The notes beneath the pieces are model-generated. The model was not told the DNA's origin, did not search any database, and worked only from the letters and a program-made list of their open reading frames with translations. This document shows positions 17,879-36,884 of a stretch of DNA of 64,000 nt, one piece after another (the first letter of the stretch is position 1; the number at the start of each line of letters is the position of its first letter). The translations under genes were made by a program, and so were the position numbers. Source of the DNA: Escherichia coli (lineage in GTDB: Bacteria > Pseudomonadota > Gammaproteobacteria > Enterobacterales > Enterobacteriaceae); NCBI RefSeq assembly GCF_017348835.2, contig NZ_CP071375.1; one strand, 5' to 3'.

Positions 17879-17989
17879 TACTTCTCCGGTTAGTAAGAAA
17901 TCACGGAAGGAATGCTACCACTGCGAATTTAACCACTTACTGACATGGCTCACGATGTCACGTATTGCACAGGCGCTGAGACTGATGAC

Positions 17990-18120
17990 AAACACAGCAT
18001 TGCCTGATGCGCTACGCTTACCTGACCTACCAGATAACTGCAATATATTGAATTTTCAAAATTATGTAGACCGAATAAGGCTTCATTCCGCATCCGGCAT
18101 AAACAATGTGCACTTTGCCA
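17990..18120. repeat. Degenerate REP-like units between pepE and sorE
   Basis: GCCTGATGCGCTACGCTTA and GCTTCATTCCGCATCCGGCAT motifs resembling REP consensus. Confidence 0.5.
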
Positions 18121-18258
18121 CCAATTTGAGCGCCCCTTAAGGCGCTGATATTTTTTATGCTTCTCGTGCAAATTGTGCTGCTTCAGCAATCAGCAGCTCA
18201 TCCGGTCGCGAAGTTGCTGGTGCGACCAGCCAGCGACATGCAGAGTTGAGTAACGCGA

Positions 18259-19488: not shown

Positions 19489-19539
19489 AAACCACCTCAT
19501 GTTGAGCGATGGCCCCGGCAGTCGTGCCGGGGCGAAGAA

Positions 19540-20364
19540 TCAGGACAGGAAGCCCAGCGCATTGCCGATAATCCCTAAGCCAAACAGGGCGAAAATCAGC
19601 CATACCGGGTTAATTTTTTTGTTGAGCAGACGAACCATTAGTAGCGTCAGACCGAGCGCCAGCAAACCAGGGCAAAGTTGGTCGAGAATGTTCTGCACGG
19701 TCATGATGACGGTGGAGCCATCGGCGGCATGCGTTTGTGAAACCACCAACGGTACGTTGATTGACGTCCATTTGGTGACCAGCACGCCCATCACAAACAG
19801 TCCGAGAATCGACGCGCCTTCGGTGAGTTTTTGCAGCAAATTACCGCCCATATCGCTGACGATATTCACCCCTTTGCGAAAGCCGAGCTGGAGGCCATAC
19901 CACTTCATCGCCAGACGCACCGCGTTGAAAATAAAGAAGAACAGCAGCGGGCCGAGAATGTTGCCCGAAAGTGCCAGAGATGCGCCGAGCGCGGCGGTAA
20001 TCGGGCGCAGCGTTCCCCAGACCAGTGGATCGCCAACCCCTGCCAATGGTCCCATCAGACCGACTTTGATGCCGTTAATGGTGCCGTCATCAATTTCCGC
20101 GCCGTTGGCCCGCGCCTCTTCCATGGCGGCAGTGACGCCGATGACCGGGCCACATACGGCTGGCGTGGTATTGAAGAACACCAGGTGTCGCCTGAGCGCC
20201 GCAACCTGATCCTCTTTTAATGGGTAAAGTCGCTTGATGGCGGGGATCATGTCGTAGCAAAAGCCCAGCCCGTGAATACGTTCAAAGTTAAAGGACGCCT
20301 GTTGCAGGTTGGAGCGCAGAAACATGCTCACCAGATCGCTGCGTGTAATTTTTCTCTGTTCCAT
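19540..20364 (-). CDS. sorM: PTS sorbose/mannose-family EIID component
   Basis: ORF 19540..20394; EIID-like membrane protein; likely start MEQRKITRSDL... giving about 274 aa. Confidence 0.8.
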   Translation of the reverse strand: MEQRKITRSDLVSMFLRSNLQQASFNFERIHGLGFCYDMIPAIKRLYPLKEDQVAALRRHLVFFNTTPAVCGPVIGVTAAMEEARANGAEIDDGTINGIKVGLMGPLAGVGDPLVWGTLRPITAALGASLALSGNILGPLLFFFIFNAVRLAMKWYGLQLGFRKGVNIVSDMGGNLLQKLTEGASILGLFVMGVLVTKWTSINVPLVVSQTHAADGSTVIMTVQNILDQLCPGLLALGLTLLMVRLLNKKINPVWLIFALFGLGIIGNALGFLS

Positions 20365-20374
20365 GATGGCTCCG

Positions 20375-21172
20375 TTAATCGTCAAGTTGGTCAAGGGCGG
20401 TGGAAGCGGGGGCCTGGAGCTGAGGTTCAGCTTTACGCCACTGTGGATTTAACTGGATGTAGACCAGGGCCATGATCACGCCGACGCCACCGAACGCCAG
20501 CAGACTGAGATCGAGGTAGCCACCTGCGAGGAAACCGAGGAAAAAGAAAGGCATCAAATATTTCACGCCCATCATACGTAGCACCATGGCGTAACCGACC
20601 ACCACGATAAAACCGCCAGCAATCTGTAGTCCTCGGGTCACAAATTCGGGAATGGCGTTTAACATATTGCTCACCATATCGGCGCTGACGAACAGCGAGA
20701 CAATCAGTGCCGGAACAGCAACGCGCAGCGCCTGCACGCCAAGCGCGGAGACATGCAGAATATCGAGAGTGCGAAACCGTGCTTCTTCCGCTGCTTTATC
20801 CGCCGCGTGCTGGAACACTACGGTGATGGTACGTGCAAACACCGTCAGCACCTGGCCTGCCGCAGCCACAGGCAACGCGATGGCGATTCCGGTGGCGATG
20901 CTTTGCTGACCAACGATAACCAGAATGGCGGAGATTATGCTGGCGAGTGCAGAATCCGGAGATTGCGCCGCGCCGACGTTCATCCAGCCGAGAGCTATCA
21001 ATTCCAGCGTACCACCGAGTATTATTCCGGTTTTTAAATCACCGAGAATTAAACCAATCACCGTACAGGCAATTAACGGGCGATGAGTCTGGAATTCATC
21101 CAGCACGCTGCCCATTCCGGCAATACAGGAAAAAAGAAATATAGCAATAATTTGTAGGGTACTTATTTCCAT
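20375..21172 (-). CDS. sorA: PTS sorbose/mannose-family EIIC component
   Basis: 265-aa hydrophobic ORF with EIIC-like sequence (MEISTLQIIAIFLFSCIAGMGSVLDEFQ...). Confidence 0.8.
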   Translation of the reverse strand: MEISTLQIIAIFLFSCIAGMGSVLDEFQTHRPLIACTVIGLILGDLKTGIILGGTLELIALGWMNVGAAQSPDSALASIISAILVIVGQQSIATGIAIALPVAAAGQVLTVFARTITVVFQHAADKAAEEARFRTLDILHVSALGVQALRVAVPALIVSLFVSADMVSNMLNAIPEFVTRGLQIAGGFIVVVGYAMVLRMMGVKYLMPFFFLGFLAGGYLDLSLLAFGGVGVIMALVYIQLNPQWRKAEPQLQAPASTALDQLDD

Positions 21173-21237
21173 GATTTGTCACCTTTTAAGTGTCGTCATC
21201 CCTGCCTGTTAAAGCATATGTACACAGGCGCTATTAT

Positions 21238-21732
21238 TTAATTTGCGATTAACTGTTCGTTTATTTTGTCGATAATATTGATTGAGGGATCTGACGCTAC
21301 GACGCGTAAATCCAGTATGACGCCAAGATTATTTAACTCATGAAATGCGTTAATATCATCATCATCTAATGAAACCGCTTTGGTTAACTGTTTTTTACCG
21401 GGCCGCCAGGCCATGCCGCCAATATTCAGGGTGCCTATTTTTACCCCCTGGCGAACCATCGCTAAGGCATCCTGTGGGCGAGTGAAAAGATAAAAAACGG
21501 TTTCGTCCTGATATTGCGGGTTGTGATAAACCGCGACGGCTTTTTCAATATTGACCACGTTAACCTTCATTCCCGGTGGCGCAGCCTGACGCAATAATGT
21601 CCGGCGAACTTCATCGTTATAAACTTCGTCATTGCAGATAATAATGCGCTGGGCGTTAGCCACTTTCGACCAGACGGTAGTGACCTGACCGTGGATCAGG
21701 CGGTCATCAATGCGGGCGAGCGTAATGTTCAT
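21238..21732 (-). CDS. sorB: PTS sorbose/mannose-family EIIB component
   Basis: 164-aa ORF MNITLARIDDRLIHGQVTTVW... (conserved IIB His motif). Confidence 0.85.
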   Translation of the reverse strand: MNITLARIDDRLIHGQVTTVWSKVANAQRIIICNDEVYNDEVRRTLLRQAAPPGMKVNVVNIEKAVAVYHNPQYQDETVFYLFTRPQDALAMVRQGVKIGTLNIGGMAWRPGKKQLTKAVSLDDDDINAFHELNNLGVILDLRVVASDPSINIIDKINEQLIAN

Positions 21733-22139
21733 CAGAAATCCTCCTCTGCCGTTGCCACCTGTCTCCAGACGACGCAGGATTGCTTTGCGATTTGCGTCAG
21801 GTGTTCACACAGTTCATCAACATTCATGCTGTCCTGGTTATCAACCAGTTCGAGCGCCAGCGGCAGAGAAAGGCCGCTGATTACCCGCAAACGAGGATTG
21901 CGCATCGCAAGCATCGCTGCCGCATTCCACGGGCTGCCGCACTGTAAATCCACGGCAATCAGCCACTCATCTTGATTGTGAATGCTTACTAACTTTTCCA
22001 GCTTTACCACAATGTCTCCGGCGTTTTCACCGGGCACAAATTCAACGGCTTCAACATTGGCGTTGCCGTAAACCATCTGAACCGATTCCAGCATGGCGCA
22101 AGCTAATTTGCCGTGGGCACAAAAAATGGCGTTGACCAT
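21732..22139 (-). CDS. sorF: PTS sorbose/mannose-family EIIA component
   Basis: 135-aa ORF MVNAIFCAHGKLA...; start of sorB overlaps its stop (ATGA), indicating translational coupling. Confidence 0.85.
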   Translation of the reverse strand: MVNAIFCAHGKLACAMLESVQMVYGNANVEAVEFVPGENAGDIVVKLEKLVSIHNQDEWLIAVDLQCGSPWNAAAMLAMRNPRLRVISGLSLPLALELVDNQDSMNVDELCEHLTQIAKQSCVVWRQVATAEEDF

Positions 22140-22148
22140 AAAGCCTCC

Positions 22149-22955
22149 TTATCCGCGCGTTTTGCCGCCCGCAATGTTAGTGGTTACTCCGGTGATGTAG
22201 CTGGCGCGTTCAGACAACAGATAACAAACAAAATCAGCGACTTCTGCTAATCTACCGGCGCGCCCAATAGGAATGGCGTTTTTGGTATAGCCTTCACGCA
22301 GCTGCTCGACGGTGATATTGCGCGTCCACGCCAGCGCTTCTTCATATTCCGGCGTGCGCAGTCCTGTTTTTTCCAGAATCCCCGGCGCGATACCGACCAC
22401 ACGGATACCGTGTTTACCCAATTCTTTCGACCAGGAGCGCGTGAAGCTATTGAGCGCGGCTTTGGTAGCGGCGTAACAGCTTTGTCCTTCTGAGCCTTCC
22501 AGCCCACTTTCTGAGGAAACATTCACAATCACGCCATCATGTTGTTTGACCATCTGTCGCGCCACCGCCTGCGACATCAGAAAAACACCTTTCTGGTTGA
22601 TATTGACCATTTTTTCGAATGCAGCTTCGTTGAGTTCATACTGCCCGGCAGGCGCTTTCTCATCGACCAGCAGACGCGGGAAATTGACCCCGGCGTTATT
22701 GACCAGACCGTCGATGCGACCAAAACGCTGGATAATTTCCGCTACCGTATGATTTACCTCTTTGGCGCTGGAAATATCGGTCGGCCAAAACTGATAGCCT
22801 TTATGACCTTCATATTGTCCATCGCCACCGTGAATATCGACCATCTGTACATTCGCGCCTTGTGCTAATAATTCCTCTACAATCGCCAGACCAATACCGG
22901 ATGCGCCGCCGGTGACGATAATGATTTTATCCTGCAAATTTAACCACGTTTGCAT
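22149..22955 (-). CDS. sorD: Sorbitol-6-phosphate 2-dehydrogenase (short-chain dehydrogenase/reductase)
   Basis: 268-aa ORF with TGGASGIG Rossmann motif and SDR catalytic YxxxK (YAATKAAL). Confidence 0.8.
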   Translation of the reverse strand: MQTWLNLQDKIIIVTGGASGIGLAIVEELLAQGANVQMVDIHGGDGQYEGHKGYQFWPTDISSAKEVNHTVAEIIQRFGRIDGLVNNAGVNFPRLLVDEKAPAGQYELNEAAFEKMVNINQKGVFLMSQAVARQMVKQHDGVIVNVSSESGLEGSEGQSCYAATKAALNSFTRSWSKELGKHGIRVVGIAPGILEKTGLRTPEYEEALAWTRNITVEQLREGYTKNAIPIGRAGRLAEVADFVCYLLSERASYITGVTTNIAGGKTRG

Positions 22956-23024
22956 AACAGACTCCTGATTTTAGATAATAGGGACCCGCCGTAATTTTTA
23001 TTACGATAAACATCGGGAAGATTT

Positions 23025-23972
23025 TTATTTCAGTAATAGTTCAGCTGTGCTGCTATTCGTTACCAGACAATTAATATATTTTCCACGCAGTGCACCAATA
23101 ATTCCGCTGTATTTTTCTTCACTCATGGCAATGCCAATGGAATATCGTGCCTGCTTTAATTTATTCATTTCGATAGAGAGTGTTTTTTCGCTCATATTCG
23201 TTTCAACCATTGCGCCGTGAATATCAAAAAAGCGCGAGCAAATATCGCCAGCAACCTGGCGGGCATTCAGGTCGTCACTCTCTTCACCACCATAAAACGC
23301 ATGCCAGTTAGCGCCGTCGCGAATGGCCGGTGAGCCAATTCCCACCAGGGCGACATCCAGATTATCCCAGTAGGCAGAGATGGTTTTAAAGTGCTGAGAC
23401 TGCATGATCCCATTACGAATTAAGGGGTTATCCAGCAGAGCCGGAAAATCCGCGAGATGCGATTCCCCTTTCAGCTTCGCTGCCGCGCTGTAGGTTAATG
23501 TGTTTACGTGATAGCGGCTTTCGAGTTTACCGGACGGTCCGCCAATAATTGGCACGCAGATTAACTGCCGCGATTGCCCCGCTTGCGGCAAGTTTTCAAC
23601 CAGTGCGCTCACCGCGCGACCCCAGGAAAAACCGACAATATCGCCAGGCTCCAGCAAGCGATCCAGCAGTTGCGCGCCGTGTAACCCCATCATCGCCAGT
23701 TGAGTCTCTTCATCCTCATCATTTCCCGACACCACCACAACGTCTTTCAGGCCAAACTTTTGCTTCAGTTGCTGCTCGAGCCAGAGATTTTCGTTGTAGT
23801 CATAGTTGATGGCGATGGTGACAATTCCCTGATCGCGGCCTCGTTTAAGCAAGCGGCTGATGGTGGTGCGGTAAATACCCAGTTCGCGCGCGATTTGCGC
23901 CTGCGTCATATCCTGTTCGTAATAGAGTTGGGCAATCTTCACAATCAAACGGATATCGTCACTGTTTTCCAT
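23025..23972 (-). CDS. sorC: SorC-family transcriptional regulator of the sorbose operon
   Basis: ORF 23025..24056 trimmed to MENSDDIRLIVKIAQLYYEQDMTQAQIARELG... (HTH plus sugar-binding domain, about 315 aa). Confidence 0.8.
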   Translation of the reverse strand: MENSDDIRLIVKIAQLYYEQDMTQAQIARELGIYRTTISRLLKRGRDQGIVTIAINYDYNENLWLEQQLKQKFGLKDVVVVSGNDEDEETQLAMMGLHGAQLLDRLLEPGDIVGFSWGRAVSALVENLPQAGQSRQLICVPIIGGPSGKLESRYHVNTLTYSAAAKLKGESHLADFPALLDNPLIRNGIMQSQHFKTISAYWDNLDVALVGIGSPAIRDGANWHAFYGGEESDDLNARQVAGDICSRFFDIHGAMVETNMSEKTLSIEMNKLKQARYSIGIAMSEEKYSGIIGALRGKYINCLVTNSSTAELLLK

Positions 23973-23988
23973 TGCCGCCTCCTGGTTC

Positions 23989-24111
23989 TGCACATTTGTG
24001 CAAATACGCTTTCTCACCGCTTGATCTGATATAACCCCATCATGATGGCCTTTCAAAGCGATTTTTCACTCTTTGCATGGGGAGAAATAGCGCTTTCTCT
24101 TGCACATTTGT
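23989..24111. promoter_or_regulatory. sor promoter region with repeated TGCACATTTGT motif (one copy forms palindrome TGCACATTTGTGCA)
   Basis: Motif occurs at 23989-24002 and 24101-24111, just upstream of the sorC start; candidate SorC operator sites. Confidence 0.35.
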
Positions 24112-24319
24112 TTCTCTGCGCAGTAGTCATCAGCACAGGTGTGCAGCGATTCGTAATATGTTGATTATCCTTATTTTGCCAGGCAAATTTGCATTGTACT
24201 TCCGGAGACACTTTTGTGATAAAAGGCGTGGCAGATCACATTTAATTTCGACGTTGCCGCATAACTCTGTTTTTCCCTGCTAAGAGGTACGGTATATTCC
24301 GCGTTTTACAGGAGAATTT

Positions 24320-25192
24320 ATGCTGCCCGACTCATCAGTCCGTTTAAATAAATACATCAGCGAAAGCGGAATTTGCTCACGCCGCGAAGCGGATCGCTAT
24401 ATCGAGCAAGGCAATGTGTTCCTTAATGGCAAGCGAGCCACCATTGGCGATCAGGTGAAACCCGGCGACGTTGTGAAAGTAAACGGTCAGTTGATTGAGC
24501 CTCGGGAAGCCGAAGATTTGGTACTTATCGCCTTGAACAAGCCCGTCGGTATTGTCAGCACCACCGAAGATGGCGAGCGCGATAACATTGTCGATTTCGT
24601 TAACCACAGCAAACGCGTGTTCCCGATTGGTCGTCTGGATAAAGATTCCCAGGGGCTGATTTTCCTCACCAACCACGGTGATCTGGTGAATAAGATCCTG
24701 CGTGCTGGCAATGATCATGAAAAAGAGTATTTGGTAACGGTCGATAAACCGATTACCGATGAATTTATTCGTGGTATGGGGGCGGGAGTGCCGATCCTCG
24801 GGACGGTGACGAAAAAGTGCAAAGTCAAAAAAGAAGCACCGTTTGTCTTCCGCATTACCCTGGTGCAGGGGTTGAACCGTCAGATCCGTCGCATGTGCGA
24901 GCACTTTGGTTACGAAGTGAAAAAGCTGGAACGTACGCGCATTATGAACGTCAGCTTAAGCGGCATTCCGCTGGGTGAGTGGCGCGATTTAACTGACGAT
25001 GAGTTAATCGACCTCTTTAAGCTCATCGAAAATTCCTCTTCCGAGGCAAAACCTAAAGCGAAGGCCAAACCGAAAACAGCGGGCATCAAACGTCCAGTCG
25101 TTAAGATGGAAAAAACGGCGGAAAAAGGCGGTCGCCCGGCGTCCAACGGTAAGCGTTTTACCTCGCCGGGGCGAAAAAAGAAGGGGCGCTAA
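24320..25192 (+). CDS. rluF: 23S rRNA pseudouridine synthase F
   Basis: 290-aa ORF with S4 domain and RsuA-family catalytic region ([22 protein letters not shown]). Confidence 0.9.
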
Positions 25193-25465
25193 TCAGCGCC
25201 TGCCGCGCGTCGACGTATTTGCTGACCAGCTAAATGACGCTTCAGGATCCGGTTTATAAGCCTGCTTTTTCTTTAACTGGCGGGCTTTTTTCGCTTCAGC
25301 CTCACGCTCGACCATTAATTTATCGATGTACTCTTTCTTAATGCTGTTGGTTTCGGAGTTGGTCAGTACGCGACCATGCGCAATCCGCGCCCGATCCAGC
25401 AGTGTTTTAAGTTCACGTTGCTCGCGTTCAGTCATCTCTTTTTGAGTAATACGGGGGAGTGCCAT
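25193..25465 (-). CDS. yjbD: Small conserved protein YjbD (DUF3811-like)
   Basis: 90-aa ORF MALPRITQKEMTEREQRELKTLLDRARIAHGRVL... at the expected position. Confidence 0.8.
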   Translation of the reverse strand: MALPRITQKEMTEREQRELKTLLDRARIAHGRVLTNSETNSIKKEYIDKLMVEREAEAKKARQLKKKQAYKPDPEASFSWSANTSTRGRR

Positions 25466-25993
25466 GATGGTGCCCTCAGTGAGCCAGAGAGTTCAGTGTA
25501 CGGGAATTCGTTTGCGAGCAGAACTGATAATATTCCTTTGTTCTCTTCTTAAATATTTATCTTTCTTGATAATTGACGATAAATACAGATACAAATTTAG
25601 CGAAAAAATCTCCCCCTACAAACAACAATGATTTATTAAATCTTTATTTTTCATGTAATTAAAATTTTTTATCACTTCTGGCACGCTTCTCGCAATAACA
25701 CTTTTGCGTTGATACTGAATTACAAAGGGGGTTAAACCCCGTCGGCACACCAGGAACGGCCAGGCTGTTTTCCGGGCGTGTTCCGTCAGCCTTTGACGCC
25801 AATTACGGGTTCGATTCCCACATTCATTCCTGAAATGAATACTGGTTGTAACTTATTAAATAAAAAATGAGGGATTGCGCAGTCTGCGGTCCCCGATAAC
25901 GTCACCGATAAAGATGCCGGGTAACAGGCAAAAGGGAATTCCCCTGTCGCTTCGTGTCTGCTTCCGCGACGGCTATTAAGCAAGGAATAGATA

Positions 25994-27121
25994 ATGATTA
26001 AAAAAATAAGCGTAAGAAAAGATCAGCTGGCATTACTCTCCAGAAACGGCGATTACTACAAAGTGCTGCATGCAGGCGAGCATATTTTACCCTGGTTAAA
26101 TACCCCGGAAGTGTTGCTGATTACGCTGGATGGTAGCGAAGTTCCCGACGTGCTTGCGGATTATTTGCGCCGCTTTCAGCCTGATTGGGTGGAGAAATAT
26201 TGCCTGGTGGCAGACTTGTCGGAGACTGAAGCCGGGGTGTTGTATATGGACGGTATTTTGTTGGAGATCCTGCCGCCATCAACGCGTCGTTTGTACTGGC
26301 GTGTAGAGGATGATTTGACGCTGGTGCGGATGAATACGCAGCAAGTCCCGGTACAAACGGAGGTGATGAATGCGGTATTACAGCCACGGCGCAAAGGAGT
26401 TGTTAAAGGCCGCGATGCGATACTGACGGTGCAGGTTCCGGCCTGGCATGTAGGCGTGCTGAAAATCGATGGTGAAACGCAGGCGCTGTTACCGCCGGGG
26501 CTGACTGCGTACTGGAAAATAAATCATCTGGTTGAAGCTGAAGTTGTCGACACCCGCTTGCAGGTACTGGAAGTCAGCGGGCAAGAAATCTTAACGAAAG
26601 ATAAGGTCAATCTGCGGATTAATCTCGCCGCTAACTGGCGCTATAGCGATGTGTTGCTGGCATTTAGTCAGCTAACGAAGCCGATTGATCATTTGTATCG
26701 GGAATTACAATTTGCCCTGCGTGAAGCGGTAGGTACGCGCACACTGGATGAACTGCTGGAAGATAAACAGGTCATTGATGACGTTGTTAGCGAGCAGGTG
26801 AAACTACGCATGAAGCCGTTCGGTATGGAGATCGCTTCGTTAGGAGTAAAAGATATCGTCCTGCCTGGCGATATGAAAAATATTCTTGCGCAACTGGTAG
26901 AGGCGGAGAAATCCGCGCAGGCCAATGTGATTCGCCGACGTGAAGAAACGGCAGCGACGCGCTCGTTACTGAACACCGCCAAAGTCATGGAGAACAATCC
27001 GGTAGCGTTGCGTTTAAAAGAGCTGGAAACGCTGGAGAGAGTGGCTGAGCGGATTGATAACATCTCTGTATTTGGCGGTCTGGATCAGGTTCTGCATGGG
27101 TTGGTTAATATCAAAGGGTGA
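25994..27121 (+). CDS. Soluble SPFH/band-7 (stomatin/prohibitin-like) domain protein with a novel ~170-aa N-terminal domain
   Basis: 375-aa ORF; C-terminal half has SPFH-like features (VSGQEILTKDKVNLRINLAANWRY...AEKSAQANVIRRREETAATRSL); no evident N-terminal transmembrane segment; AAGGA Shine-Dalgarno before the ATG. Confidence 0.7.
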   Translation: MIKKISVRKDQLALLSRNGDYYKVLHAGEHILPWLNTPEVLLITLDGSEVPDVLADYLRRFQPDWVEKYCLVADLSETEAGVLYMDGILLEILPPSTRRLYWRVEDDLTLVRMNTQQVPVQTEVMNAVLQPRRKGVVKGRDAILTVQVPAWHVGVLKIDGETQALLPPGLTAYWKINHLVEAEVVDTRLQVLEVSGQEILTKDKVNLRINLAANWRYSDVLLAFSQLTKPIDHLYRELQFALREAVGTRTLDELLEDKQVIDDVVSEQVKLRMKPFGMEIASLGVKDIVLPGDMKNILAQLVEAEKSAQANVIRRREETAATRSLLNTAKVMENNPVALRLKELETLERVAERIDNISVFGGLDQVLHGLVNIKG

Positions 27122-27918
27122 GTAACATGCCATTAAATGGAGTCAGTGCTGCGATGCGCGAAAGGGTATCGCAGCAGTTAAAAGAAATTGAACGTCGCTA
27201 TGGCGTGAAAGTGCTGTACGCCTGCGAATCGGGGAGTCGCGGCTGGGGATTTGCTTCGCCCGACAGCGATTACGATGTGCGGTTTTTGTATGTCCATCCG
27301 CTGGAATGGTATCTGCGGGTAGAGGCACCACGCGATGTTATCGAACTGCCCATCGACGACGAGTTAGATGTTTCCGGTTGGGAATGGCGCAAAGCGCTGG
27401 GATTGCTGAAAGGTGCGAATCCCACGCTAATTGAATGGCTGGATTCACCGGTGGTCTATCAGCAAGATGAAGAGACGATAACGGCGCTTAAGGCAATGGT
27501 CCCAACGTGGTTTTCTCCGTTGCGTGCGCGCTGGCATTACTATTCGATGGCGCAGAAAAACTTCCGCGGATATTTGCAGGGCGATGAAGTTCGACTGAAA
27601 AAATACTTTTACGTGCTGCGTCCGTTGCTGGCCGTGCGTTGGGTTGAAGCGGGAAAAGGCGTACCGCCAATGCGTTTTTCCGAATTGCTGGCGGGAAGTG
27701 AGTTGGATGCGGCCTTACGCGCAGAAATAGATGAATTACTGGAACGTAAACAGCGTGCGGGTGAAGCGGAATATGGCCCACGCCGTCCATTGCTACATGC
27801 GTTTATCCATGCGGAACTGGCGCGTGGGGAAATTCCGCCTGTGTTACCGGATAGTAGAGAAGGGGACGTTAAGAAACTGGATAGCTTACTGTACCAGACG
27901 GTAATGCGCCGGGCGTGA
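27118..27918 (+). CDS. Pol-beta-superfamily nucleotidyltransferase
   Basis: 266-aa ORF; ESGSRGWGFASPDSDYDVRF fits the hG[GS]x9-13DxD nucleotidyltransferase signature; GTG start at 27118 overlaps the upstream stop (GTGA), alternative ATG at 27127 with AGGGTG Shine-Dalgarno. Confidence 0.7.
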   Translation: MSNMPLNGVSAAMRERVSQQLKEIERRYGVKVLYACESGSRGWGFASPDSDYDVRFLYVHPLEWYLRVEAPRDVIELPIDDELDVSGWEWRKALGLLKGANPTLIEWLDSPVVYQQDEETITALKAMVPTWFSPLRARWHYYSMAQKNFRGYLQGDEVRLKKYFYVLRPLLAVRWVEAGKGVPPMRFSELLAGSELDAALRAEIDELLERKQRAGEAEYGPRRPLLHAFIHAELARGEIPPVLPDSREGDVKKLDSLLYQTVMRRA

Positions 27919-27933
27919 TGCCCGGCGTTATTT
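27906..27933 (+). terminator. Intrinsic terminator after the nucleotidyltransferase gene
   Basis: Hairpin CGCCGGGC-gtgat-GCCCGGCG overlapping the stop codon, followed by TTATTT. Confidence 0.5.
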
Positions 27934-27950
27934 CAGGTCATCAGCTTTTA

Positions 27951-28880
27951 TTATTCTTGTGCACTTCCGCTGATTTCATTTTGTATATGCGTTGCAATAT
28001 CGCAATTGGTTGCCGCTTGTGAACTAAATATCATCTTCTCACGCGAATACACCGCAAACTTATCTGCCAGGTTTGAAGCAAACACCTTGCTGGCATTTTC
28101 TGCTAGCAAATCGGTAACGATATCATGGTGATTTTTATCCACTTTGCGGGCGATATTTCCCGCCTCTTTGTCCTTATTATACCCTTCGTTGGTGCTTTCC
28201 CAGCTTAATGCCGCTGAGGTGGTTTTTATCATGACTTCTGTTCGGTAGCCTGCATCTTTGAGTTTTTTTAATGTTTGTAGCGGCGTAGCGGCATTACGAA
28301 ATGTTCCTTCGACAACAATATTGAGTTTATTGGCTATGGCCCTCTCTATTGCACGTTCGACCGTTTCGCCGGAAAATTTTGCCGTATGGGTAACAAAATC
28401 GTCGCCATAAGTTTGATATATATAATTAAAATCAGGGTGTAGAAATCTGAAATCATCACCATTAATAATCATTATATTATTCTTTGTTTCCCTTTTTGCT
28501 AATTCGATTAGGGCGGATTTTCCGGCTCCTGGTTGTCCACCTAAAACAAAACCAATGGGACTCTGCTGGGATGTGACGTCATGGTTTGTCAGACGCTGCC
28601 AAATAGAATCAAAAGACGCTTTATTTTCTGAATGCGCAGTATTATTAAATTCACGCTGATACTTTTTTCTGACCTGCTGGAGGCGTAACTTTCCCTGTGT
28701 AAAATCAACAAGTTCTGCTGGAGTGGAATAAAGATTGTCGCGATAGCTGACTAATTGTGATAGCTCATCGTCTGAGTCCTGAACTTGTGAGGAAAAACAA
28801 CTGTCGACGATATTTGATAAAAACGCGATGCACTGACTGGTGCCGTTTAAAAGTGCATCTTTTTCCATTAAAGTAGCCAT
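27951..28880 (-). CDS. ezeT: Single-chain zeta-toxin family protein (EzeT-like UDP-GlcNAc kinase toxin with N-terminal cis-antitoxin domain)
   Basis: ORF 27951..28886; Walker A GGQPGAGKS placed ~110 residues from the N-terminus (long N-terminal extension); zeta-toxin-like C-terminal region; likely ATG at 28880 preceded by AGGAG; AT-rich. Confidence 0.7.
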   Translation of the reverse strand: MATLMEKDALLNGTSQCIAFLSNIVDSCFSSQVQDSDDELSQLVSYRDNLYSTPAELVDFTQGKLRLQQVRKKYQREFNNTAHSENKASFDSIWQRLTNHDVTSQQSPIGFVLGGQPGAGKSALIELAKRETKNNIMIINGDDFRFLHPDFNYIYQTYGDDFVTHTAKFSGETVERAIERAIANKLNIVVEGTFRNAATPLQTLKKLKDAGYRTEVMIKTTSAALSWESTNEGYNKDKEAGNIARKVDKNHHDIVTDLLAENASKVFASNLADKFAVYSREKMIFSSQAATNCDIATHIQNEISGSAQE

Positions 28881-29024
28881 TAACACTCCTGTTAAATAAT
28901 ATTTTTCGGTGATTATAATACTGTTCTACAGGAGTGATTTTGCATTTCAGATATTATTTAATCTATGTTTGCAGTGAGGATGGCGTATAACAATTGGTGA
29001 GCGTTATACGCCAGTAGGAAAATA

Positions 29025-30374
29025 TTACTCAAACAAATTACTATGCAGTTTTTGCACCACCTGCTCGGCATCTTCGCCGGGCACCAGGAAGCACAGGTTA
29101 TGGCTGGATGCGCCGTAACAAATCATGCGAATGTTGAACGGTTCCAGTACGCCGAATACCTCTTTGCCAACGCCGCAGGCTTTTGACAGGTCATTGCCAA
29201 TCAACGCGACCAGCGCCAGACCTTCTTCTACTTCCACCCGGCACAGTGCGGAAAGCTCCATCAGCAGAGATTGCGTCAGCAACGTATCGCCAGTGGAGGT
29301 TGAACCGGTGGTATCAAGGGTTAATGCCACGCTCACTTCTGACGTGGTGATTAAGTCTACCGAAATATTATGCCGCGCGAGGATGCCGAAAACTTCCGCG
29401 AGGAAGCCGCGAGAATGCAGCATATTCAGGCTGTGCAAAGTGAGCAGAGTCTGATTGCGACGAAGCGCCAGCGCGCGGAACAGCGGCGGATTTTCAGTTT
29501 TATTGCATACCAGCGTACCACCTGCGCGTGGGTCTTTGCTGGAGCCGACAAAGACCGGGATATCGCTGCGTACTGCGGGTAGCAATGTTGCCGGATGCAG
29601 TACTTTTGCACCAAAAGTTGCCATCTCTGCTGCTTCGGCAAACGCGATTTCATCAATGCGTTTTGCTGCGGAAACCACGCGTGGATCGGTGGTGTAGATG
29701 CCCGGGACGTCGGTCCAGATATCAACACGAGATGCGTGTAAAGCCTCCGCCAGCAAGGCTGCCGTATAATCGCTGCCTCCACGGCCAAGCGTCGTTGTAC
29801 GACCTTTATTTTCGCTACCGATAAATCCCTGGGTGATCACTAAACCTTCATTGAGACGTGGGAGCAGCTGCAGCGCGGCCAGTTCCGCCAGCGCGGCTAT
29901 ATCTGGCTCTGCACGACCAAATCGGTCGTTGGTACGCATCACTTTACGTACATCAAACCACTGTGCCTGAACATCGCGTTCGCGCAGGATCTCAACAAAC
30001 AGCAGGGTCGACATCAGCTCGCCGTGGCTGACCAGCTCATCTGTCAGCGCCGGAGACGTTGCCAGCGCCGCCGCTTCTGCCAGAACAGTAATGTTCTCCA
30101 GCAGACGTTCAATCTCTTCACGGATAACGTTCGGGTAACGCAGACGTTCCAGAATGGCAAACTGGATGTTGCGAATAGCGTCGAGTTTTTCGAATCGCTC
30201 GCCAGGTTCCAGCCCTTCCGCTAAAGCGACCAGCAGATTAGTGATACCAGCAGAAGCCGAGAGGACAACTAAACGCACGTTGGCATCAGAAAGCACAATA
30301 TCAGCGCTGCGGTTCATGGCGTCAAAATCAGCTACGCTGGTACCGCCAAATTTGGAGACAACAATTTCAGACAT
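29025..30374 (-). CDS. lysC: Lysine-sensitive aspartokinase III
   Basis: 449-aa ORF MSEIVVSKFGGTSVADFDAMNRSADIVLSDANVRLVVLSASAGITN... recognised as LysC. Confidence 0.95.
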   Translation of the reverse strand: MSEIVVSKFGGTSVADFDAMNRSADIVLSDANVRLVVLSASAGITNLLVALAEGLEPGERFEKLDAIRNIQFAILERLRYPNVIREEIERLLENITVLAEAAALATSPALTDELVSHGELMSTLLFVEILRERDVQAQWFDVRKVMRTNDRFGRAEPDIAALAELAALQLLPRLNEGLVITQGFIGSENKGRTTTLGRGGSDYTAALLAEALHASRVDIWTDVPGIYTTDPRVVSAAKRIDEIAFAEAAEMATFGAKVLHPATLLPAVRSDIPVFVGSSKDPRAGGTLVCNKTENPPLFRALALRRNQTLLTLHSLNMLHSRGFLAEVFGILARHNISVDLITTSEVSVALTLDTTGSTSTGDTLLTQSLLMELSALCRVEVEEGLALVALIGNDLSKACGVGKEVFGVLEPFNIRMICYGASSHNLCFLVPGEDAEQVVQKLHSNLFE

Positions 30375-30439
30375 AACTACCTCGTGTCAGGGGATCCATT
30401 TTCAGCCTTGGCACAAGGGAAGAGCGGAAGACGGGTGGG

Positions 30440-30660
30440 CGCAGAGCGATACTTCGCTACTATTTTCACCCAGAAGTGCTCCACCACTTGCGAAACGCCC
30501 GACTGCGAACGCTTCTGGTGACAACCCAGGGGATTCAGCCCCTGTAGCCGATGATGAACGTGGCCAGCCGTTCAATCACCTCGGCGATGCACCCCCTCAG
30601 GTGTTATCACAGGACTGGCTCCTCCAACACCGTTACTTGGGCAACGCGCCTCTTCTGGCC
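30440..30660 (-). ncRNA. Lysine riboswitch (LYS element) in the lysC 5' leader
   Basis: Long 5' leader on the minus strand upstream of lysC; reverse complement contains AGAGGCGCGUUGCCCAAGUAACGGUGUUGGAGGAGCCAG ... GGUGCAUCGCCGAGGUGAUUGAACGG, consistent with the known lysC lysine aptamer; boundaries approximate. Confidence 0.65.
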
Positions 30661-30898
30661 TGCGCTAGCGCAGGTAGTACATTTATAAATAAAGGGTGAG
30701 CGGGGCGGTTGTCAACGACGGGGTCATGCGGATTTTTCATCCACTCCTGGCGGTCAGTAGTTCAGCTAATAAATGCTTCACTGCGCTAAGGGTTTACACT
30801 CAACATTACGCTAACGGCACTAAAACCATCACATTTTTCTGTGACTGGCGCTACAATCTTCCAAAGTCACAATTCTCAAAATCAGAAGAGTATTGCTA

Positions 30899-32548
30899 AT
30901 GAAAAACATCAATCCAACGCAGACCGCTGCCTGGCAGGCACTACAGAAACACTTCGATGAAATGAAAGACGTTACGATCGCCGATCTTTTTGCTAAAGAC
31001 GGCGATCGTTTTTCTAAGTTCTCCGCAACCTTCGACGATCAGATGCTGGTGGATTACTCCAAAAACCGCATCACTGAAGAGACGCTGGCGAAATTACAAG
31101 ATCTGGCGAAAGAGTGCGATCTGGCGGGCGCGATTAAGTCGATGTTCTCTGGCGAGAAGATCAACCGCACTGAAAACCGCGCTGTGCTGCACGTAGCGCT
31201 GCGTAACCGTAGCAATACCCCGATTTTGGTTGATGGCAAAGACGTAATGCCGGAAGTCAACACGGTGCTGGAGAAGATGAAAACCTTCTCGGAAGCGATT
31301 ATCTCCGGTGAGTGGAAGGGTTATACCGGCAAAGCAATCACTGACGTAGTGAACATCGGGATCGGCGGTTCTGACCTCGGCCCGTACATGGTGACCGAAG
31401 CACTGCGTCCGTACAAAAATCACCTGAACATGCACTTTGTTTCTAACGTCGATGGGACTCACATCGCGGAAGTGCTGAAAAAAATAAACCCGGAAACCAC
31501 GCTGTTCCTGGTAGCATCTAAAACCTTCACCACTCAGGAAACCATGACCAACGCCCATAGCGCGCGTGACTGGTTCCTGAAAGCGGCAGGTGATGAAAAA
31601 CACGTTGCGAAACACTTTGCGGCGCTATCAACCAATGCCAAAGCCGTTGGCGAGTTTGGTATTGATACTGCCAACATGTTCGAGTTCTGGGACTGGGTCG
31701 GCGGTCGTTACTCTTTGTGGTCAGCGATTGGCCTGTCGATTGTTCTCTCCATCGGCTTTGATAACTTCGTTGAACTGCTTTCTGGCGCACACGCGATGGA
31801 CAAGCATTTCTCCACCACGCCTGCCGAGAAAAACCTGCCTGTCCTGCTGGCGCTGATTGGCATCTGGTACAACAATTTCTTTGGTGCGGAAACTGAAGCG
31901 ATTCTGCCGTATGACCAGTATATGCACCGTTTCGCGGCGTACTTCCAGCAGGGCAATATGGAGTCCAACGGTAAGTATGTTGACCGTAACGGTAACGTTG
32001 TGGATTACCAGACTGGCCCGATTATCTGGGGTGAACCAGGCACTAACGGTCAGCACGCGTTCTACCAGCTGATCCATCAGGGAACCAAAATGGTACCGTG
32101 CGATTTCATCGCCCCGGCTATCACCCATAACCCGCTCTCTGATCATCACCAGAAACTGCTGTCTAACTTCTTTGCTCAGACCGAAGCGCTGGCGTTTGGT
32201 AAATCCCGCGAAGTGGTTGAGCAGGAATATCGCGATCAGGGTAAAGATCCGGCAACGCTTGACTACGTGGTTCCGTTCAAAGTGTTCGAAGGTAACCGCC
32301 CGACCAACTCTATCCTGTTGCGCGAAATCACTCCGTTCAGCCTGGGTGCGTTGATTGCGCTGTATGAGCACAAAATCTTTACTCAGGGCGTGATCCTGAA
32401 CATCTTCACCTTCGACCAGTGGGGCGTGGAACTGGGTAAACAGCTGGCGAACCGTATTCTGCCAGAGCTGAAAGATGATAAAGAAATCAGCAGCCACGAT
32501 AGCTCGACCAATGGTCTGATTAACCGCTATAAAGCGTGGCGCGGTTAA
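30899..32548 (+). CDS. pgi: Glucose-6-phosphate isomerase
   Basis: ORF 30893..32548 trimmed to [19 protein letters not shown]... (549 aa). Confidence 0.95.
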
Positions 32549-32550
32549 TC

Positions 32551-32660
32551 ATCGTTCATGCCTGATGCCGCTATGTAGGCCGGATAAGGCGTTCACGCCG
32601 CATCCGGCAACCGATGCCTGATGCGACGCGGTCGCGTCTTATCAGGCCTACAGGTCGATG
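32551..32660. repeat. REP cluster downstream of pgi
   Basis: GCCTGATGCCGCTATGTAGGCCGGATAAGGCGTTCACGCCGCATCCGGCA and GCCTGATGCGACGCGGTCGCGTCTTATCAGGCCTACA units. Confidence 0.75.
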
Positions 32661-32720
32661 CCGATATGTACATCGTATTCGGCAATTAATACATAGCACG
32701 ATTGATTAAATAACCTTAAT

Positions 32721-32755
32721 AACAATGCCGACGTTATGTCGGCATTGTTTTATCA
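32721..32755 (+). terminator. Strong intrinsic terminator (12-bp perfect stem) downstream of pgi
   Basis: AACAATGCCGAC-gttat-GTCGGCATTGTT followed by TTATC. Confidence 0.55.
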
Positions 32756-33059
32756 GATAAATCCCCTTGTCTGTTATTTAACGGAAATCATACCGTGAGG
32801 TTAATCCTAAAATAGATTTTTAATCGTGATTGATTTCGGAAAATACTCAGATTAATTACTTTTACTTTTATTTTAACATTATGATTTTTAATATTATTTA
32901 TATATAAGTTGTAGCTTATATTTGATATTCATTCCAATTATCCTAAAACCCCATCTCTAATTCCCCGCGCCGTAATTCGCATGCTTTAGTTGTGTATACT
33001 CGATCCCGCCCGAAATGTTTTTGGGTAAATCTCCATTCATTCAATGAAGGGAAATTGTT

Positions 33060-33302
33060 ATGAAAAAAGTTCTGTATGGCATTTTTGCCATATCTGCGCT
33101 TGCGGCGACTTCTGCGTGGGCTGCACCTGTACAGGTGGGCGAAGCGGCAGGGTCGGCAGCAACGTCGGTTTCGGCGGGGAGTTCCTCCGCGACCAGCGTC
33201 AGCACCGTAAGCTCGGCGGTGGGGGGCGCGCTCGCGGCAACCGGTGGCGGTGATGGTTCTAATACCGGGACCACAACAACCACGACCACCAGTACCCAGT
33301 AA
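33060..33302 (+). CDS. yjbE: Small secreted low-complexity protein of the yjbEFGH exopolysaccharide locus
   Basis: 80-aa ORF with signal peptide ([21 protein letters not shown]) and Ser/Gly/Thr/Ala-rich tail ending in poly-Thr. Confidence 0.85.
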
Positions 33303-33415
33303 TAAAGTATGTATCCCCAAAATAATTCGAGTCATCACATCTGTGGCTTGAAGTATGAAGGGATTTACCATAACCACACTCCGGTGTGGTTATTCTGCCC
33401 CTCTGGAGAAGAGTC

Positions 33416-34054
33416 GTGAAGCGACCTGCATTCATTCTTATCTGCCTGCTATTACAGGCCTGTTCAGCCACGACTAAAGAGCTGGGCAATTCACTGTGGG
33501 ACAGTCTGTTCGGTACGCCAGGTGTACAGCTGACGGACGATGATATTCAAAATATGCCCTACGCCAGCCAGTACATGCAGCTTAATGGCGGGCCGCAGTT
33601 ATTTGTGGTGCTGGCCTTCGCTGAAGACGGACAACAAAAATGGGTCACTCAGGATCAGGCCACTCTCGTCACACAACATGGTCGTCTGGTGAAGACTCTG
33701 CTTGGCGGCGACAACTTGATTGAGGTGAATAACCTTGCCGCCGACCCGCTGATTAAACCCGCACAAATCATTGATGGTGCAACTTGGACGCGCACGATGG
33801 GCTGGACCGAATACCAGCAGGTACGCTACGCCACCGCACGCTCAGTCTTCAAATGGGATGGCACCGATACCGTCAAAGTCGGCAGCGATGAAACCCCGGT
33901 TCGCGTGCTGGACGAAGAAGTCTCCACCAACCAGGCGCGCTGGCATAACCGCTATTGGATCGACAGCGAAGGGCAAATTCGCCAGTCGGAACAGTATCTC
34001 GGCGCGGATTATTTCCCGGTGAAAACCACCCTCATCAAGGCGGCAAAACAATGA
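33416..34054 (+). CDS. yjbF: Lipoprotein YjbF
   Basis: ORF 33386..34054; lipobox LLQAC after a hydrophobic signal; start probably GTG at 33416 (VKRPAFILICLLLQAC). Confidence 0.75.
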   Translation: MKRPAFILICLLLQACSATTKELGNSLWDSLFGTPGVQLTDDDIQNMPYASQYMQLNGGPQLFVVLAFAEDGQQKWVTQDQATLVTQHGRLVKTLLGGDNLIEVNNLAADPLIKPAQIIDGATWTRTMGWTEYQQVRYATARSVFKWDGTDTVKVGSDETPVRVLDEEVSTNQARWHNRYWIDSEGQIRQSEQYLGADYFPVKTTLIKAAKQ

Positions 34055-34788
34055 TCAAACAAACTTTTGTCGCGTTGCTTTTGAGTGTGGGAGCGTCATC
34101 GGTCTTCGCGGCAGGAACCGTCAAGGTGTTCAGCAATGGCAGCAGTGAGGCCAAAACACTAACAGGCGCAGAGCATTTAATCGATCTGGTAGGCCAACCG
34201 CGGCTGGCAAACAGCTGGTGGCCCGGTGCGGTGATCAGCGAAGAGCTGGCAACGGCGGCAGCATTGCGTCAGCAGCAGGCGTTGCTGACACGGCTGGCAG
34301 AACTGGCCGCAGACTCCAGCGCTGATGATGCCGCTGCGATTAACGCCTTACGCCAGCAAATTCAGGCGTTGAAAGTGACGGGTAGGCAAAAAATCAATCT
34401 TGATCCCGATATCGTCCGCGTTGCCGAACGCGGTAACCCGCCGTTGCAGGGGAACTACACGCTGTGGGTCGGACCACCGCCGTCCACGGTCACGTTGTTC
34501 GGGCTTATCAGCCGTCCTGGCAAGCAGCCATTCACTCCAGGTCGCGACGTGGCGAGCTATCTCTCTGACCAGAGCCTGCTCAGCGGTGCGGATCGCAGCT
34601 ACGCGTGGGTGGTTTACCCGGACGGACGCACGCAAAAAGCGCCGGTGGCTTACTGGAACAAGCGTCACGTAGAGCCGATGCCCGGCAGCATTATTTATGT
34701 TGGCCTCGCGGACTCCGTCTGGAGTGAGACGCCTGATGCCCTTAACGCCGACATTCTTCAGACTCTGACGCAGCGGATACCTCAATAA
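34051..34788 (+). CDS. yjbG: Periplasmic protein YjbG
   Basis: ORF 33955..34788 trimmed to [20 protein letters not shown]... (signal peptide); ATG overlaps the yjbF stop (ATGA). Confidence 0.8.
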
Positions 34789-36884
34789 TGAAAAAAAGAC
34801 ATCTGCTTAGCTTACTGGCGCTGGGCATTAGCACAGCTTGCTACGGCGAAACATATCCTGCGCCCATTGGTCCGTCGCAGTCGGATTTCGGTGGCGTAGG
34901 ATTATTACAAACGCCCACGGCTCGCATGGCGCGGGAAGGGGAGTTGAGTCTGAACTATCGCGATAACGATCAGTACCGTTATTACTCAGCTTCAGTGCAA
35001 CTCTTCCCGTGGCTGGAAACAACGCTGCGCTACACCGACGTGCGCACCCGGCAGTACAGCAGCGTCGAAGCGTTCTCTGGCGATCAAACGTATAAAGATA
35101 AAGCCTTCGATCTCAAACTGCGTTTGTGGGAAGAGAGTTACTGGCTGCCGCAAGTGGCGGTTGGTGCGCGGGATATCGGCGGTACGGGGCTGTTTGATGC
35201 GGAATATCTTGTTGCCAGCAAAGCCTGGGGGCCGTTCGATTTTACGCTCGGCCTGGGCTGGGGGTATTTGGGCACCAGCGGTAATGTGAAAAATCCGCTC
35301 TGTTCAGCCAGTGATAAATATTGCTATCGCGATAACAGCTACAAACAGGCGGGATCTATCTACGGTAGCCAGATGTTCCACGGTCCTGCCTCACTGTTTG
35401 GCGGCGTGGAATACCAGACGCCCTGGCAACCGCTGCGCCTGAAACTGGAGTATGAAGGCAATAATTATCAGCAGGATTTTGCCGGTAAGCTGGAGCAAAA
35501 AAGTAAGTTTAACGTCGGGGCGATTTATCGCGTTACCGATTGGGCCGACGTTAACCTTAGCTATGAACGTGGCAACACCTTTATGTTTGGCGTCACGCTG
35601 CGCACCAACTTTAACGATCTGCGCCCGTCTTACAACGATAACGCCCGCCCGCAATATCAACCGCAGCCGCAGGATGCCATTTTGCAGCATTCGGTGGTGG
35701 CGAATCAGTTAACGCTGTTGAAATACAATGCCGGACTTGCCGATCCGCAGATCCAGGCGAAAGGCGATACGCTGTATGTTACCGGCGAGCAGGTGAAATA
35801 TCGTGATTCGCGCGAAGGGATCATCCGTGCTAATCGGATCGTGATGAATGATCTGCCGGATGGGATCAAGACGATCCGCGTTACGGAAAATCGCCTTAAC
35901 ATGCCGCAGGTGACGACGGAAACGGATGTCGCCAGCCTGAAAAATCATCTCGCCGGAGAGCCGTTGGGCCACGAAACGAAGCTGGCGCAAAAACGCGTCG
36001 AGCCAGTGGTTCCGAAGTCCACCGAGCAGGGCTGGTATATCGACAAATCGCGCTTTGATTTCCATATCGATCCGGTGCTGAACCAGTCGGTCGGTGGCCC
36101 GGAAAACTTTTACATGTATCAGCTGGGCGTGATGGGAACGGCAGATTTGTGGCTGACGGACCATCTGCTCACCACCGGCAGCCTGTTTGCAAATCTTGCC
36201 AACAACTACGACAAGTTTAACTACACCAATCCGCCGCAGGACTCGCACTTACCGCGCGTGCGTACCCATGTGCGCGAGTATGTGCAGAACGATGTCTATG
36301 TGAATAACCTGCAAGCCAACTACTTCCAGCATCTGGGCAACGGCTTCTACGGTCAGGTCTACGGCGGCTATCTCGAAACCATGTTTGGCGGTGCGGGGGC
36401 TGAGGTGTTGTATCGCCCGCTGGACAGCAACTGGGCGTTTGGTCTGGATGCCAACTACGTTAAACAGCGCGACTGGCGTAGCGCGAAAGATATGATGAAA
36501 TTCACCGACTACAGCGCGAAAACCGGACATCTGACCGCGTACTGGACGCCATCTTTCGCCCAGGACGTGTTGGTGAAAGCGAGCGTTGGGCAGTATCTGG
36601 CAGGGGATAAAGGCGGCACGCTGGAGATCGCCAAACGCTTTGATAGCGGTGTGGTGGTGGGTGGCTATGCCACGATCACGAATGTTTCGAAAGAGGAGTA
36701 CGGCGAAGGGGACTTCACCAAAGGCGTGTATGTCTCTGTACCGTTGGATCTCTTCTCGTCTGGCCCGACACGCAGCCGTGCGGCGATTGGCTGGACGCCG
36801 CTGACGCGTGACGGTGGTCAGCAACTTGGGCGTAAGTTCCAGTTGTATGACATGACCAGCGACCGTAGCGTCAATTTCCGCTAA
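34788..36884 (+). CDS. yjbH: Outer-membrane-type lipoprotein YjbH
   Basis: 698-aa ORF with N-terminal signal/lipobox (LALGISTAC); start overlaps the yjbG stop. Confidence 0.85.

Follow-up and report, generated by a model that had tools for sequence, protein, structure and literature searches.

What is the function of the perfect inverted repeat that lies between the lysC stop codon and an ezeT-like toxin gene in Escherichia coli? The original prediction, made for the stretch of 64,000 nucleotides analysed here (the window), described a 10-bp repeat in the short spacer between the lysC stop and the promoter region of the ezeT-like gene, and proposed that it may serve as an operator or a processing element for the toxin gene. 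Both the repeat and its setting were confirmed. The 10-bp core, GGCGTATAAC (28982-28991) and GTTATACGCC (29003-29012) separated by an 11-nt gap, gains one base on each side, and the repeat finder thus returns the arms TGGCGTATAAC (28981-28991) and GTTATACGCCA (29003-29013), 11 bp long, 100% complementary and 11 nt apart. The surrounding text of the window (28979-29018) reads gatGGCGTATAACaattggtgagcGTTATACGCCagtagg. The relevant features, including the repeat (HP1) and a second hairpin (HP3), are the following.

30466-30662, minus strand: lysine riboswitch in the lysC leader (RF00168, 99.5 bits, E = 2.9e-26)
29025-30374, minus strand: lysC, encoding lysine-sensitive aspartokinase III; HP1 follows its 3' end
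29027-29025, minus strand: lysC stop codon
29014-29024, minus strand: 11-nt spacer from the lysC stop to the first paired base of HP1
28981-29013, minus strand: HP1, the inverted repeat, found by the repeat finder and by RNA folding
28937-28980, minus strand: untranslated spacer after HP1, a candidate Rho-loading region and the first sequence not common with the tail-cluster haplotype described below
28884-28936, minus strand: HP3, a long imperfect hairpin whose 5' arm CACTCCTGT (28936-28928) pairs with ACAGGAGTG (28892-28884), which includes the ezeT Shine-Dalgarno sequence
28912-28917, minus strand: TATAAT -10 hexamer in the HP3 loop, with no -35 element; the likely ezeT promoter
28886-28890, minus strand: ezeT Shine-Dalgarno sequence AGGAG (start codon 28880-28878)
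27951-28880, minus strand: ezeT-like gene, 309 codons from the ATG start given in RefSeq, encoding a zeta-toxin kinase domain with a fused N-terminal antitoxin domain
27907-27933, plus strand: RlaP terminator hairpin, CGCCGGGC-GTGAT-GCCCGGCG followed by TTATTT
25994-27918, plus strand: slipin (Band 7) and RlaP nucleotidyltransferase genes, common to the ezeT and tail-cluster haplotypes and to Kluyvera, and absent from K-12

In the RNA, the lysC stop is followed by 11 nt, HP1, 100 nt and the ezeT start, for a lysC-ezeT spacer of 144 nt; the G-C core of HP1 begins 12 nt past the stop, one nucleotide after its first paired base. The lysine riboswitch governs the transcription that arrives at HP1. 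The window EzeT-like protein is 88% identical to WP_000212693.1, the experimentally studied EzeT (PMC10532202).

In lysC-sense RNA, HP1 consists of a 5' arm (29013-29002), a loop (29001-28993) and a 3' arm (28992-28981), that is, a stem of 12 bp including a U-A pair and a closing G.U pair, with a 9-nt loop; at the DNA level the repeat is perfect over 11 bp. The stem contains five G-C pairs and folds alone at -14.9 kcal/mol. Its 91-nt context folds at -21.7 kcal/mol, compared with -9.6 +/- 2.5 for shuffled sequences (z = -4.8), and none of 200 shuffles did as well. The stem is no more than moderately stable, at -15 to -18 kcal/mol, with an A/U-rich middle. The exact HP1 pattern occurs once in the window and in none of 100 shuffles. 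When any perfect 11-bp inverted repeat with 3-20 nt spacing is counted, 0.4 are expected per shuffled 64-kb window and at least one appears in 25% of the shuffles; one such repeat somewhere in the window is unremarkable and only mildly improbable by itself. The real window holds six such loci against the 0.4 expected, indicating that the class is enriched, and for one to fall within the 144-nt spacer is about a 1-in-1000 event. The reality of HP1 is settled by its conservation and by the compensatory changes described below.

HP1 does not belong to a dispersed repeat family such as REP/BIME, since it is single-copy in E. coli. It resembles REP/BIME and ERIC elements in being an intergenic palindrome past a stop codon that would block 3' exonucleases and stabilise the upstream mRNA, and differs from them in being confined to one locus and in having no similarity to the REP consensus. 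No match to Rfam covariance models (E up to 1) was obtained for the hairpins of the window, Salmonella, IAI39 and L061. A phage origin was rejected as well: two pattern scans of viral contigs returned 11 and 117 stretches, nearly all of them unrelated hairpins with other loops and flanks. One of these stretches, L034, is the Salmonella homologue of HP1 and lies on the same contig as L064.

The distribution of HP1 was established in 5426 complete E. coli genomes, in which the 3' flank of lysC exists as three haplotypes.

K-12 type, 3787 genomes: without the island; homology to the window ends exactly at the lysC stop codon
ezeT type, 1433 genomes: 138-nt spacer with HP1, present at one place per genome and never elsewhere
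Tail-cluster type (IAI39, G3X16-2), about 200 genomes: yjbD-slipin-RlaP, then a 17.6-kb phage-tail cluster

In the K-12 type, lysC is followed by an unrelated hairpin of 13 bp with a 6-nt loop and the tail TGATTTTCTT, a canonical terminator that passes the terminator scan. Among the genomes of the ezeT type, 1364 share one 45-mer and 61 have that of the window, from which it differs by one loop base. The tail cluster comprises tail genes, a holin, a transglycosylase and ClbS, and ends in a Mor-family gene (mor) convergent on lysC. Homology between the ezeT and tail-cluster haplotypes spans RlaP and its terminator hairpin and ends a few bases beyond; on the lysC side, it stops right after HP1. 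The RlaP terminator thus bounds, on the far side, the segment by which the two haplotypes differ, and these alignments indicate that the ezeT segment of about 1 kb and the 17.6-kb tail cluster fill the same slot between two 3'-end hairpins. In Kluyvera and one further relative, RlaP lies directly beside lysC. The lysC 3' flank of E. coli can thus be described as a three-state slot, either empty or filled with ezeT or with a phage-tail cluster, with the hairpin kept in both occupied states, a description useful for strain annotation and for the study of segment exchange.

Several observations were made on this slot in passing. The stretches compared are 27939-28980 of the window and 17192-34840 of the E. 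coli IAI39 locus (L049), and the tail cluster is tailocin-like. In E. coli MSB1_4I (L051, 1541-1600), an IS1 lies inside the 3' arm of a hairpin of the IAI39 type, and a deletion has removed the tail cluster as far as a truncated RlaP, making this strain a natural hairpin-disruption mutant. The RlaP stop codon (27916-27918) sits within the loop of RlaP's own terminator hairpin. The ezeT stop lies on the opposite strand, 24 nt past this hairpin (18 nt past its T-run), and there is no U-tract in the ezeT direction.

Is HP1 tied to ezeT? The hairpin occurs in several places where ezeT does not. In IAI39, the lysC and mor stops are 54 nt apart and GGTGAATAGCG-ACCCACGA-CGCTATTCACC lies midway, 12 nt from each, while G3X16-2 carries GGCGAGTTGCG-ACCCCATAT-CGCTACTCGCC at the equivalent place. 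Salmonella enterica genomes with the same mor cluster have GGCGTATAGCGC-TTGTC-GCGCTATACGCC 14 nt from the mor stop, and here a REP element is inserted between the hairpin and lysC. In metagenomic contigs encoding a Mor protein 88% identical, with no lysC nearby, GGCGTATAGCG-ATCGACCAT-TACTATACGCC lies 12 nt past the mor stop; a second hairpin with a T-run follows, so that the HP1-type hairpin is not the sole 3' element in these contigs. The G-C core is therefore found 12 nt past the lysC stop in both island haplotypes of E. coli (window; IAI39 and G3X16-2) and 12-14 nt past the mor stop in four lineages. Island-free lysC genes have other, canonical terminators at the corresponding place in a second Salmonella lineage, Citrobacter, Kluyvera and one more relative.

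Conversely, no HP1-like hairpin was found at the ezeT relatives located elsewhere, namely a Pseudocitrobacter gene (L006) whose product is 62% identical and a split pair (L021). At the equivalent position of the Pseudocitrobacter locus (2451-2614), between the ezeT relative and a co-oriented upstream ORF, lies a large hairpin-forming repeat that we take to be of ERIC type from the ERIC1R/ERIC2 primer sequences. The split pair (L021, 2263-3199) is an unfused EzeT: an 82-aa protein with 54% identity to the N-terminal antitoxin domain overlaps the beginning of a zeta toxin of 232 aa that is 68% identical to the EzeT C-terminal domain. This arrangement agrees with a published proposal that derives EzeT from a fused two-gene operon. 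About 370 nt upstream of the pair (about 1868-1896), a sequence resembling a type I-E CRISPR repeat was noticed by eye. Taken together, the genomes compared indicate that HP1 is independent of ezeT and older than ezeT at this site.

This distribution weighs on the proposal that HP1 is an operator, in which a dimeric DNA-binding protein would occupy two half-sites of 10-11 bp, 21 bp from centre to centre, and regulate ezeT. The dyad is perfect, its half-site centres are two helical turns apart, and the ezeT promoter, with no -35 element, might need an activator. HP1 is also like the operators of type II toxin-antitoxin systems (PezA, omega) in being a perfect dyad upstream of a toxin gene. It differs from them in other respects: it does not overlap the promoter or the start, its centre (28997) lying inside the lysC 3' UTR, upstream of the -10 hexamer by about 82 bp and of the inferred start by about 92 bp; the hairpin exists without the toxin (about 200 E. 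coli genomes, Salmonella, metagenomic contigs) and the toxin gene without the hairpin (L006, L021); and the half-sites are not conserved, changing at four positions with pairing kept. No DNA-binding Pfam domain, HTH and RHH included, was detected in EzeT, slipin or RlaP, and a search of 25400-29200 for further half-sites (up to two mismatches) gave five near-matches where 3.2 were expected, which is not beyond chance. We conclude that an ezeT operator role for HP1 is very unlikely, which removes a tempting wrong lead: the palindrome should not be taken for a regulatory site of the EzeT toxin.

Since HP1 is older than ezeT, it most likely marks and protects the end of the lysC message and is not a toxin switch, raising the question of whether it is a transcription terminator. 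The flanks of HP1 read TCCTCACT on the minus strand and GTAGGAAA on the plus strand, with no T-run on either. T residues account for 3/8 of the tail in the lysC sense and 1/8 on the other strand, and the 15-nt T-tract scores are 1.25 and 0.57, respectively. HP1 thus has the stable G+C stem-loop soon after a stop codon that characterises a canonical intrinsic terminator, and lacks the U-rich tract. The terminator scan returned nothing at HP1, while the same scan flagged the K-12 lysC hairpin, in agreement with the original prediction that the repeat, with no adjacent T-run, is not an obvious intrinsic terminator. A terminator score after d'Aubenton-Carafa fell below zero even for the K-12 hairpin, and tail composition and the scan were therefore relied on instead. 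Compared with the K-12-type lysC terminator, HP1 is alike in its position after the lysC stop and similar in stem length and loop size, but neither of its strands has a U-tract, and word-7 blastn detected no homology between the two sequences.

The main variant of a 3'-end role is that HP1 is the termination site itself, an unconventional intrinsic terminator, weak or NusA/NusG-dependent, acting partially and in both directions. It occupies the place that the canonical lysC terminator has in K-12-type genomes, its stem length and loop are within the terminator range, and a perfect palindrome would suit a two-way element between lysC and mor. However, criteria that accept the K-12 hairpin reject the T-poor tails of HP1, and the absence of a U-tract beside the hairpin is conserved in all lineages compared. 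We regard this variant as doubtful.

Another role would be at the DNA level: the HP1 palindrome could be a recombination substrate that aids exchange of the segment between RlaP and lysC, whether this segment is empty or contains ezeT or the tail cluster. In the boldest form of this idea, a cassette slot would have HP1 and the RlaP terminator palindrome (27907-27927) as its edges, with the palindromes, as DNA hairpins or cruciforms, serving as exchange substrates. If true, this would explain how a toxin gene of 1 kb in some Escherichia and Salmonella lineages and a tail cluster of 17.6 kb in others come to occupy the identical position downstream of lysC. A recombination role fits the ezeT/tail-cluster homology, which ends within a few bases of both palindromes, the occurrence of the E. 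coli slot in no fewer than three states and of further ones in related genera, and the insertion of IS1 inside the hairpin in one genome. By contrast, the island has no recombinase, integrase or transposase, and no second copy or half-site is present at the other boundary. Moreover, boundaries beside 3'-end hairpins are expected anyway, because these hairpins belong to flanking genes that every viable recombinant must keep. The central region of a dif site is 6-8 bp long, and the 11-bp arms of HP1 are 11-13 bp apart, the wrong spacing for a Xer site. An Xer/dif-like site was accordingly rejected, and no Xer-exploiting element is present; by eye, the HP1 arm resembles the XerC arm of dif at 7/11 positions. 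Both a recombination role for HP1 and the pairing of the two palindromes as slot edges appear quite improbable to us.

We next consider whether the pairing itself is under selection. Eight distinct hairpin variants from three genomic contexts were aligned and scored on the 12-pair helix. Standard pairs form in 93.8% of the cells, against 19-48% when the 3' partner is slid by one to three columns. Four of the 12 pairs have changed on both sides with pairing kept (C-G/U-A, U-A/A-U and, twice, A-U/G-C), compared with a mean of 1.4 in shuffles, of which 9/500 reach four. The covariation score is 0.283 versus 0.150 in shuffles, and none of 500 shuffles reaches the observed value. Across the eight variants, the only irregularities are one U.U and one C.A mismatch, and the loops differ. 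An inversion of the hairpin between haplotypes was rejected because a C/A-rich motif common to the loops keeps its orientation. The identical arm GGCGTATAGCG recurs in Salmonella, in a cryptic Escherichia clade and in the unrelated metagenomic context, which is more sequence conservation than structure alone needs. Compensations of this kind would keep a DNA cruciform or a symmetric protein-binding site intact just as well, since a perfect palindrome reads alike on both strands.

Within the ezeT haplotype, 19 substitutions in the 144-nt spacer separate E. coli from Escherichia sp. MOD1-EC7003; three of the nine loop positions have changed, and the sole change in the stem is one compensated A-U/G-C pair. 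In simulations, the combination of no broken pair and at least one compensated pair arose by chance with a frequency of about 0.02. This comparison indicates that selection on pairing continued within the ezeT haplotype, after the arrival of ezeT. It also bears on the idea that HP1 is a relic of the former lysC/mor junction, functionless where ezeT is present. HP1 clearly predates ezeT at the site, and variation within E. coli is too scant to reveal selection at work, since 1425 of the 1433 genomes carry one of the two 45-mers, which are distinguished by the loop alone. Against a functionless relic, E. coli and MOD1-EC7003 are separated by the compensated swap, and no stem change is left uncompensated although the spacer has diverged by 13%; the two E. 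coli alleles, for their part, show about 2.4-fold less divergence in the spacer than in the island (5/144 nt versus about 8.5%). A functionless HP1 is thus unlikely.

The reading that we favour, with somewhat better than even confidence and on comparative grounds, is that HP1 is an RNA 3'-end stem-loop without a U-tract, ancestrally shared by the convergent lysC and mor genes and kept when ezeT replaced the tail cluster. In the older arrangement, that of IAI39-type E. coli and Salmonella, lysC converges with mor at the end of the tail cluster; in the window lineage, the ezeT segment occupies the slot, and HP1 would have remained on the lysC side. Polymerase exiting lysC would transcribe HP1 and mostly continue, since there is no U-tract. 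The A-rich untranslated spacer past HP1, richer in C than in G, could then load Rho, and 3'-to-5' exonucleases would trim the RNA back to the base of HP1 (about 28978-28981), leaving a defined, protected lysC mRNA 3' end, presumably insulated from ezeT. HP1 itself would thus act at the RNA level. The RNA past HP1 would formerly have been antisense to mor and would now be an ezeT leader with a locked ribosome-binding site; as both would be untranslated, both would be natural Rho substrates.

The composition of the 94 nt that follow the stem (28887-28980) is 44% A, 18% C and 11% G, for a C/G ratio of 1.7 compared with 0.94 in lysC, although an excess of C over G is a weak, non-specific criterion for Rho loading, and the untranslated spacer, at about 94 nt and partly folded, offers little length for Rho loading. 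Dar & Sorek described a class of stem-loops located after genes, with no U-rich tail, no upstream A-tract and slightly more C than G downstream, which protect the RNA from PNPase and RNase II (PMC6061677). HP1 is like these Rho-dependent 3' stem-loops on each of these sequence features: it is a stable stem-loop shortly past a stop, with neither a U-rich tail nor an upstream A-tract, and C exceeds G after it. The role proposed for HP1 is based on its sequence, fold and comparison across genomes. Unlike the members of that class, HP1 was originally common to two convergent genes, and its downstream gene is now co-oriented and 144 nt away. A literature search found no transcript mapping for lysC-ezeT or for strains of the ezeT haplotype, and in Term-seq supplements the lysC ends in K-12 are only internal or in the 5' UTR.

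The proposal of a processing element thus survives in part: the comparative evidence supports it for an RNA stem-loop that defines the 3' end of lysC, and ancestrally of mor, and not for an element of the toxin gene. That the repeat simply lies within the lysC 3' UTR, the outcome which the original prediction set against itself, is essentially where this evidence points.

If lysC transcripts run past HP1, how would ezeT remain unexpressed? Folding predictions for three alleles suggest an answer in HP3. In read-through RNA from lysC, the predicted probability that AGGAG is unpaired is 0.0-0.2, compared with 0.6-0.75 in RNA begun 7 nt after the -10 hexamer. The ezeT ribosome-binding site would thus be locked in HP3 in the read-through RNA, which is predicted to be untranslatable and would for that reason favour Rho action. 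As a consequence of this lock, ezeT would be expressed only from its own weak promoter, which has a -10 hexamer only. The ezeT relatives in other settings have no HP3 5' arm in their upstream sequence; the split homologue (L021) retains TATAAT and TTTAACAGGAG and has no upstream anti-Shine-Dalgarno arm, suggesting that this arm is specific to the lysC-adjacent setting.

The same predictions bear on another role for HP1, that of a 5'-end stabiliser of a processed ezeT mRNA, generated by an RNase E cut just past the lysC stop. An AU-rich single-stranded stretch, UAAUAUUUUCC, precedes the stem, and structured 5' ends made by RNase E stabilise downstream operon segments in E. coli (PMC5927463). 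However, such an RNA is predicted to have the ezeT ribosome-binding site entirely paired, and conservation of the hairpin extends to loci whose downstream gene is convergent and not tandem. We find a 5'-stabiliser role highly improbable.

Among known systems, the closest analogue of HP3, and not of HP1, is the fold-back of IS10. Davis, Simons and Kleckner reportedly found in 1985 that fold-back inhibits translation of the IS10 transposase from outside transcripts. HP3 is predicted to be alike in that a sequence upstream of the gene's own start pairs with the ribosome-binding site, so that only RNAs coming from outside are silenced. It differs in that the gene is a toxin-antitoxin fusion beside a metabolic gene, and in that the start is placed from the -10 box only. 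In this model, the HP3 fold-back would complement the 3'-end stem-loop role of HP1, which offers a testable picture: a toxin gene 144 nt behind a strongly regulated metabolic gene could stay silent through HP1 and the HP3 fold-back.

Two further candidates in the spacer were discarded. A 10-codon ORF, MQNHSCRTVL (28915-28944, minus strand; ATG at 28944), which would encode a leader peptide, ends in the -10 box and exists in the window allele only; it is probably not real, because its ATG is AAG in the majority allele. A weak promoter, TTGAGT-18-TATAAC, lying across the lysC stop and the 5' arm, was rejected, its -10 lacking the conserved final T.

Finally, some features of the flanking sequence were recorded. 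The stretch of about 400 bp upstream of the slipin gene (25597-25993) is non-coding, and K-12 retains just a 26-bp remnant of the island (25902-25927). This stretch gave no match with ARAGORN or Rfam; it holds GGGTTCGATTCCC, which resembles a tRNA T-arm, and several G+C-rich dyads. On the other side, the last lysC codons (29040-29050) vary by haplotype, reading ...KLHSNLFE in the window and MOD1-EC7003 and ...KLHFNLFE in the O111 and IAI39 types, indicating that the divergence of the island alleles extends a few tens of bases into lysC. Between the window and the common O111-type allele, the most diverged stretch is the N-terminal antitoxin part of ezeT (28600-28880), with 27 differences in 28700-28799, compared with 0-2 per 100 bp in lysC and about 8.5% over the island.
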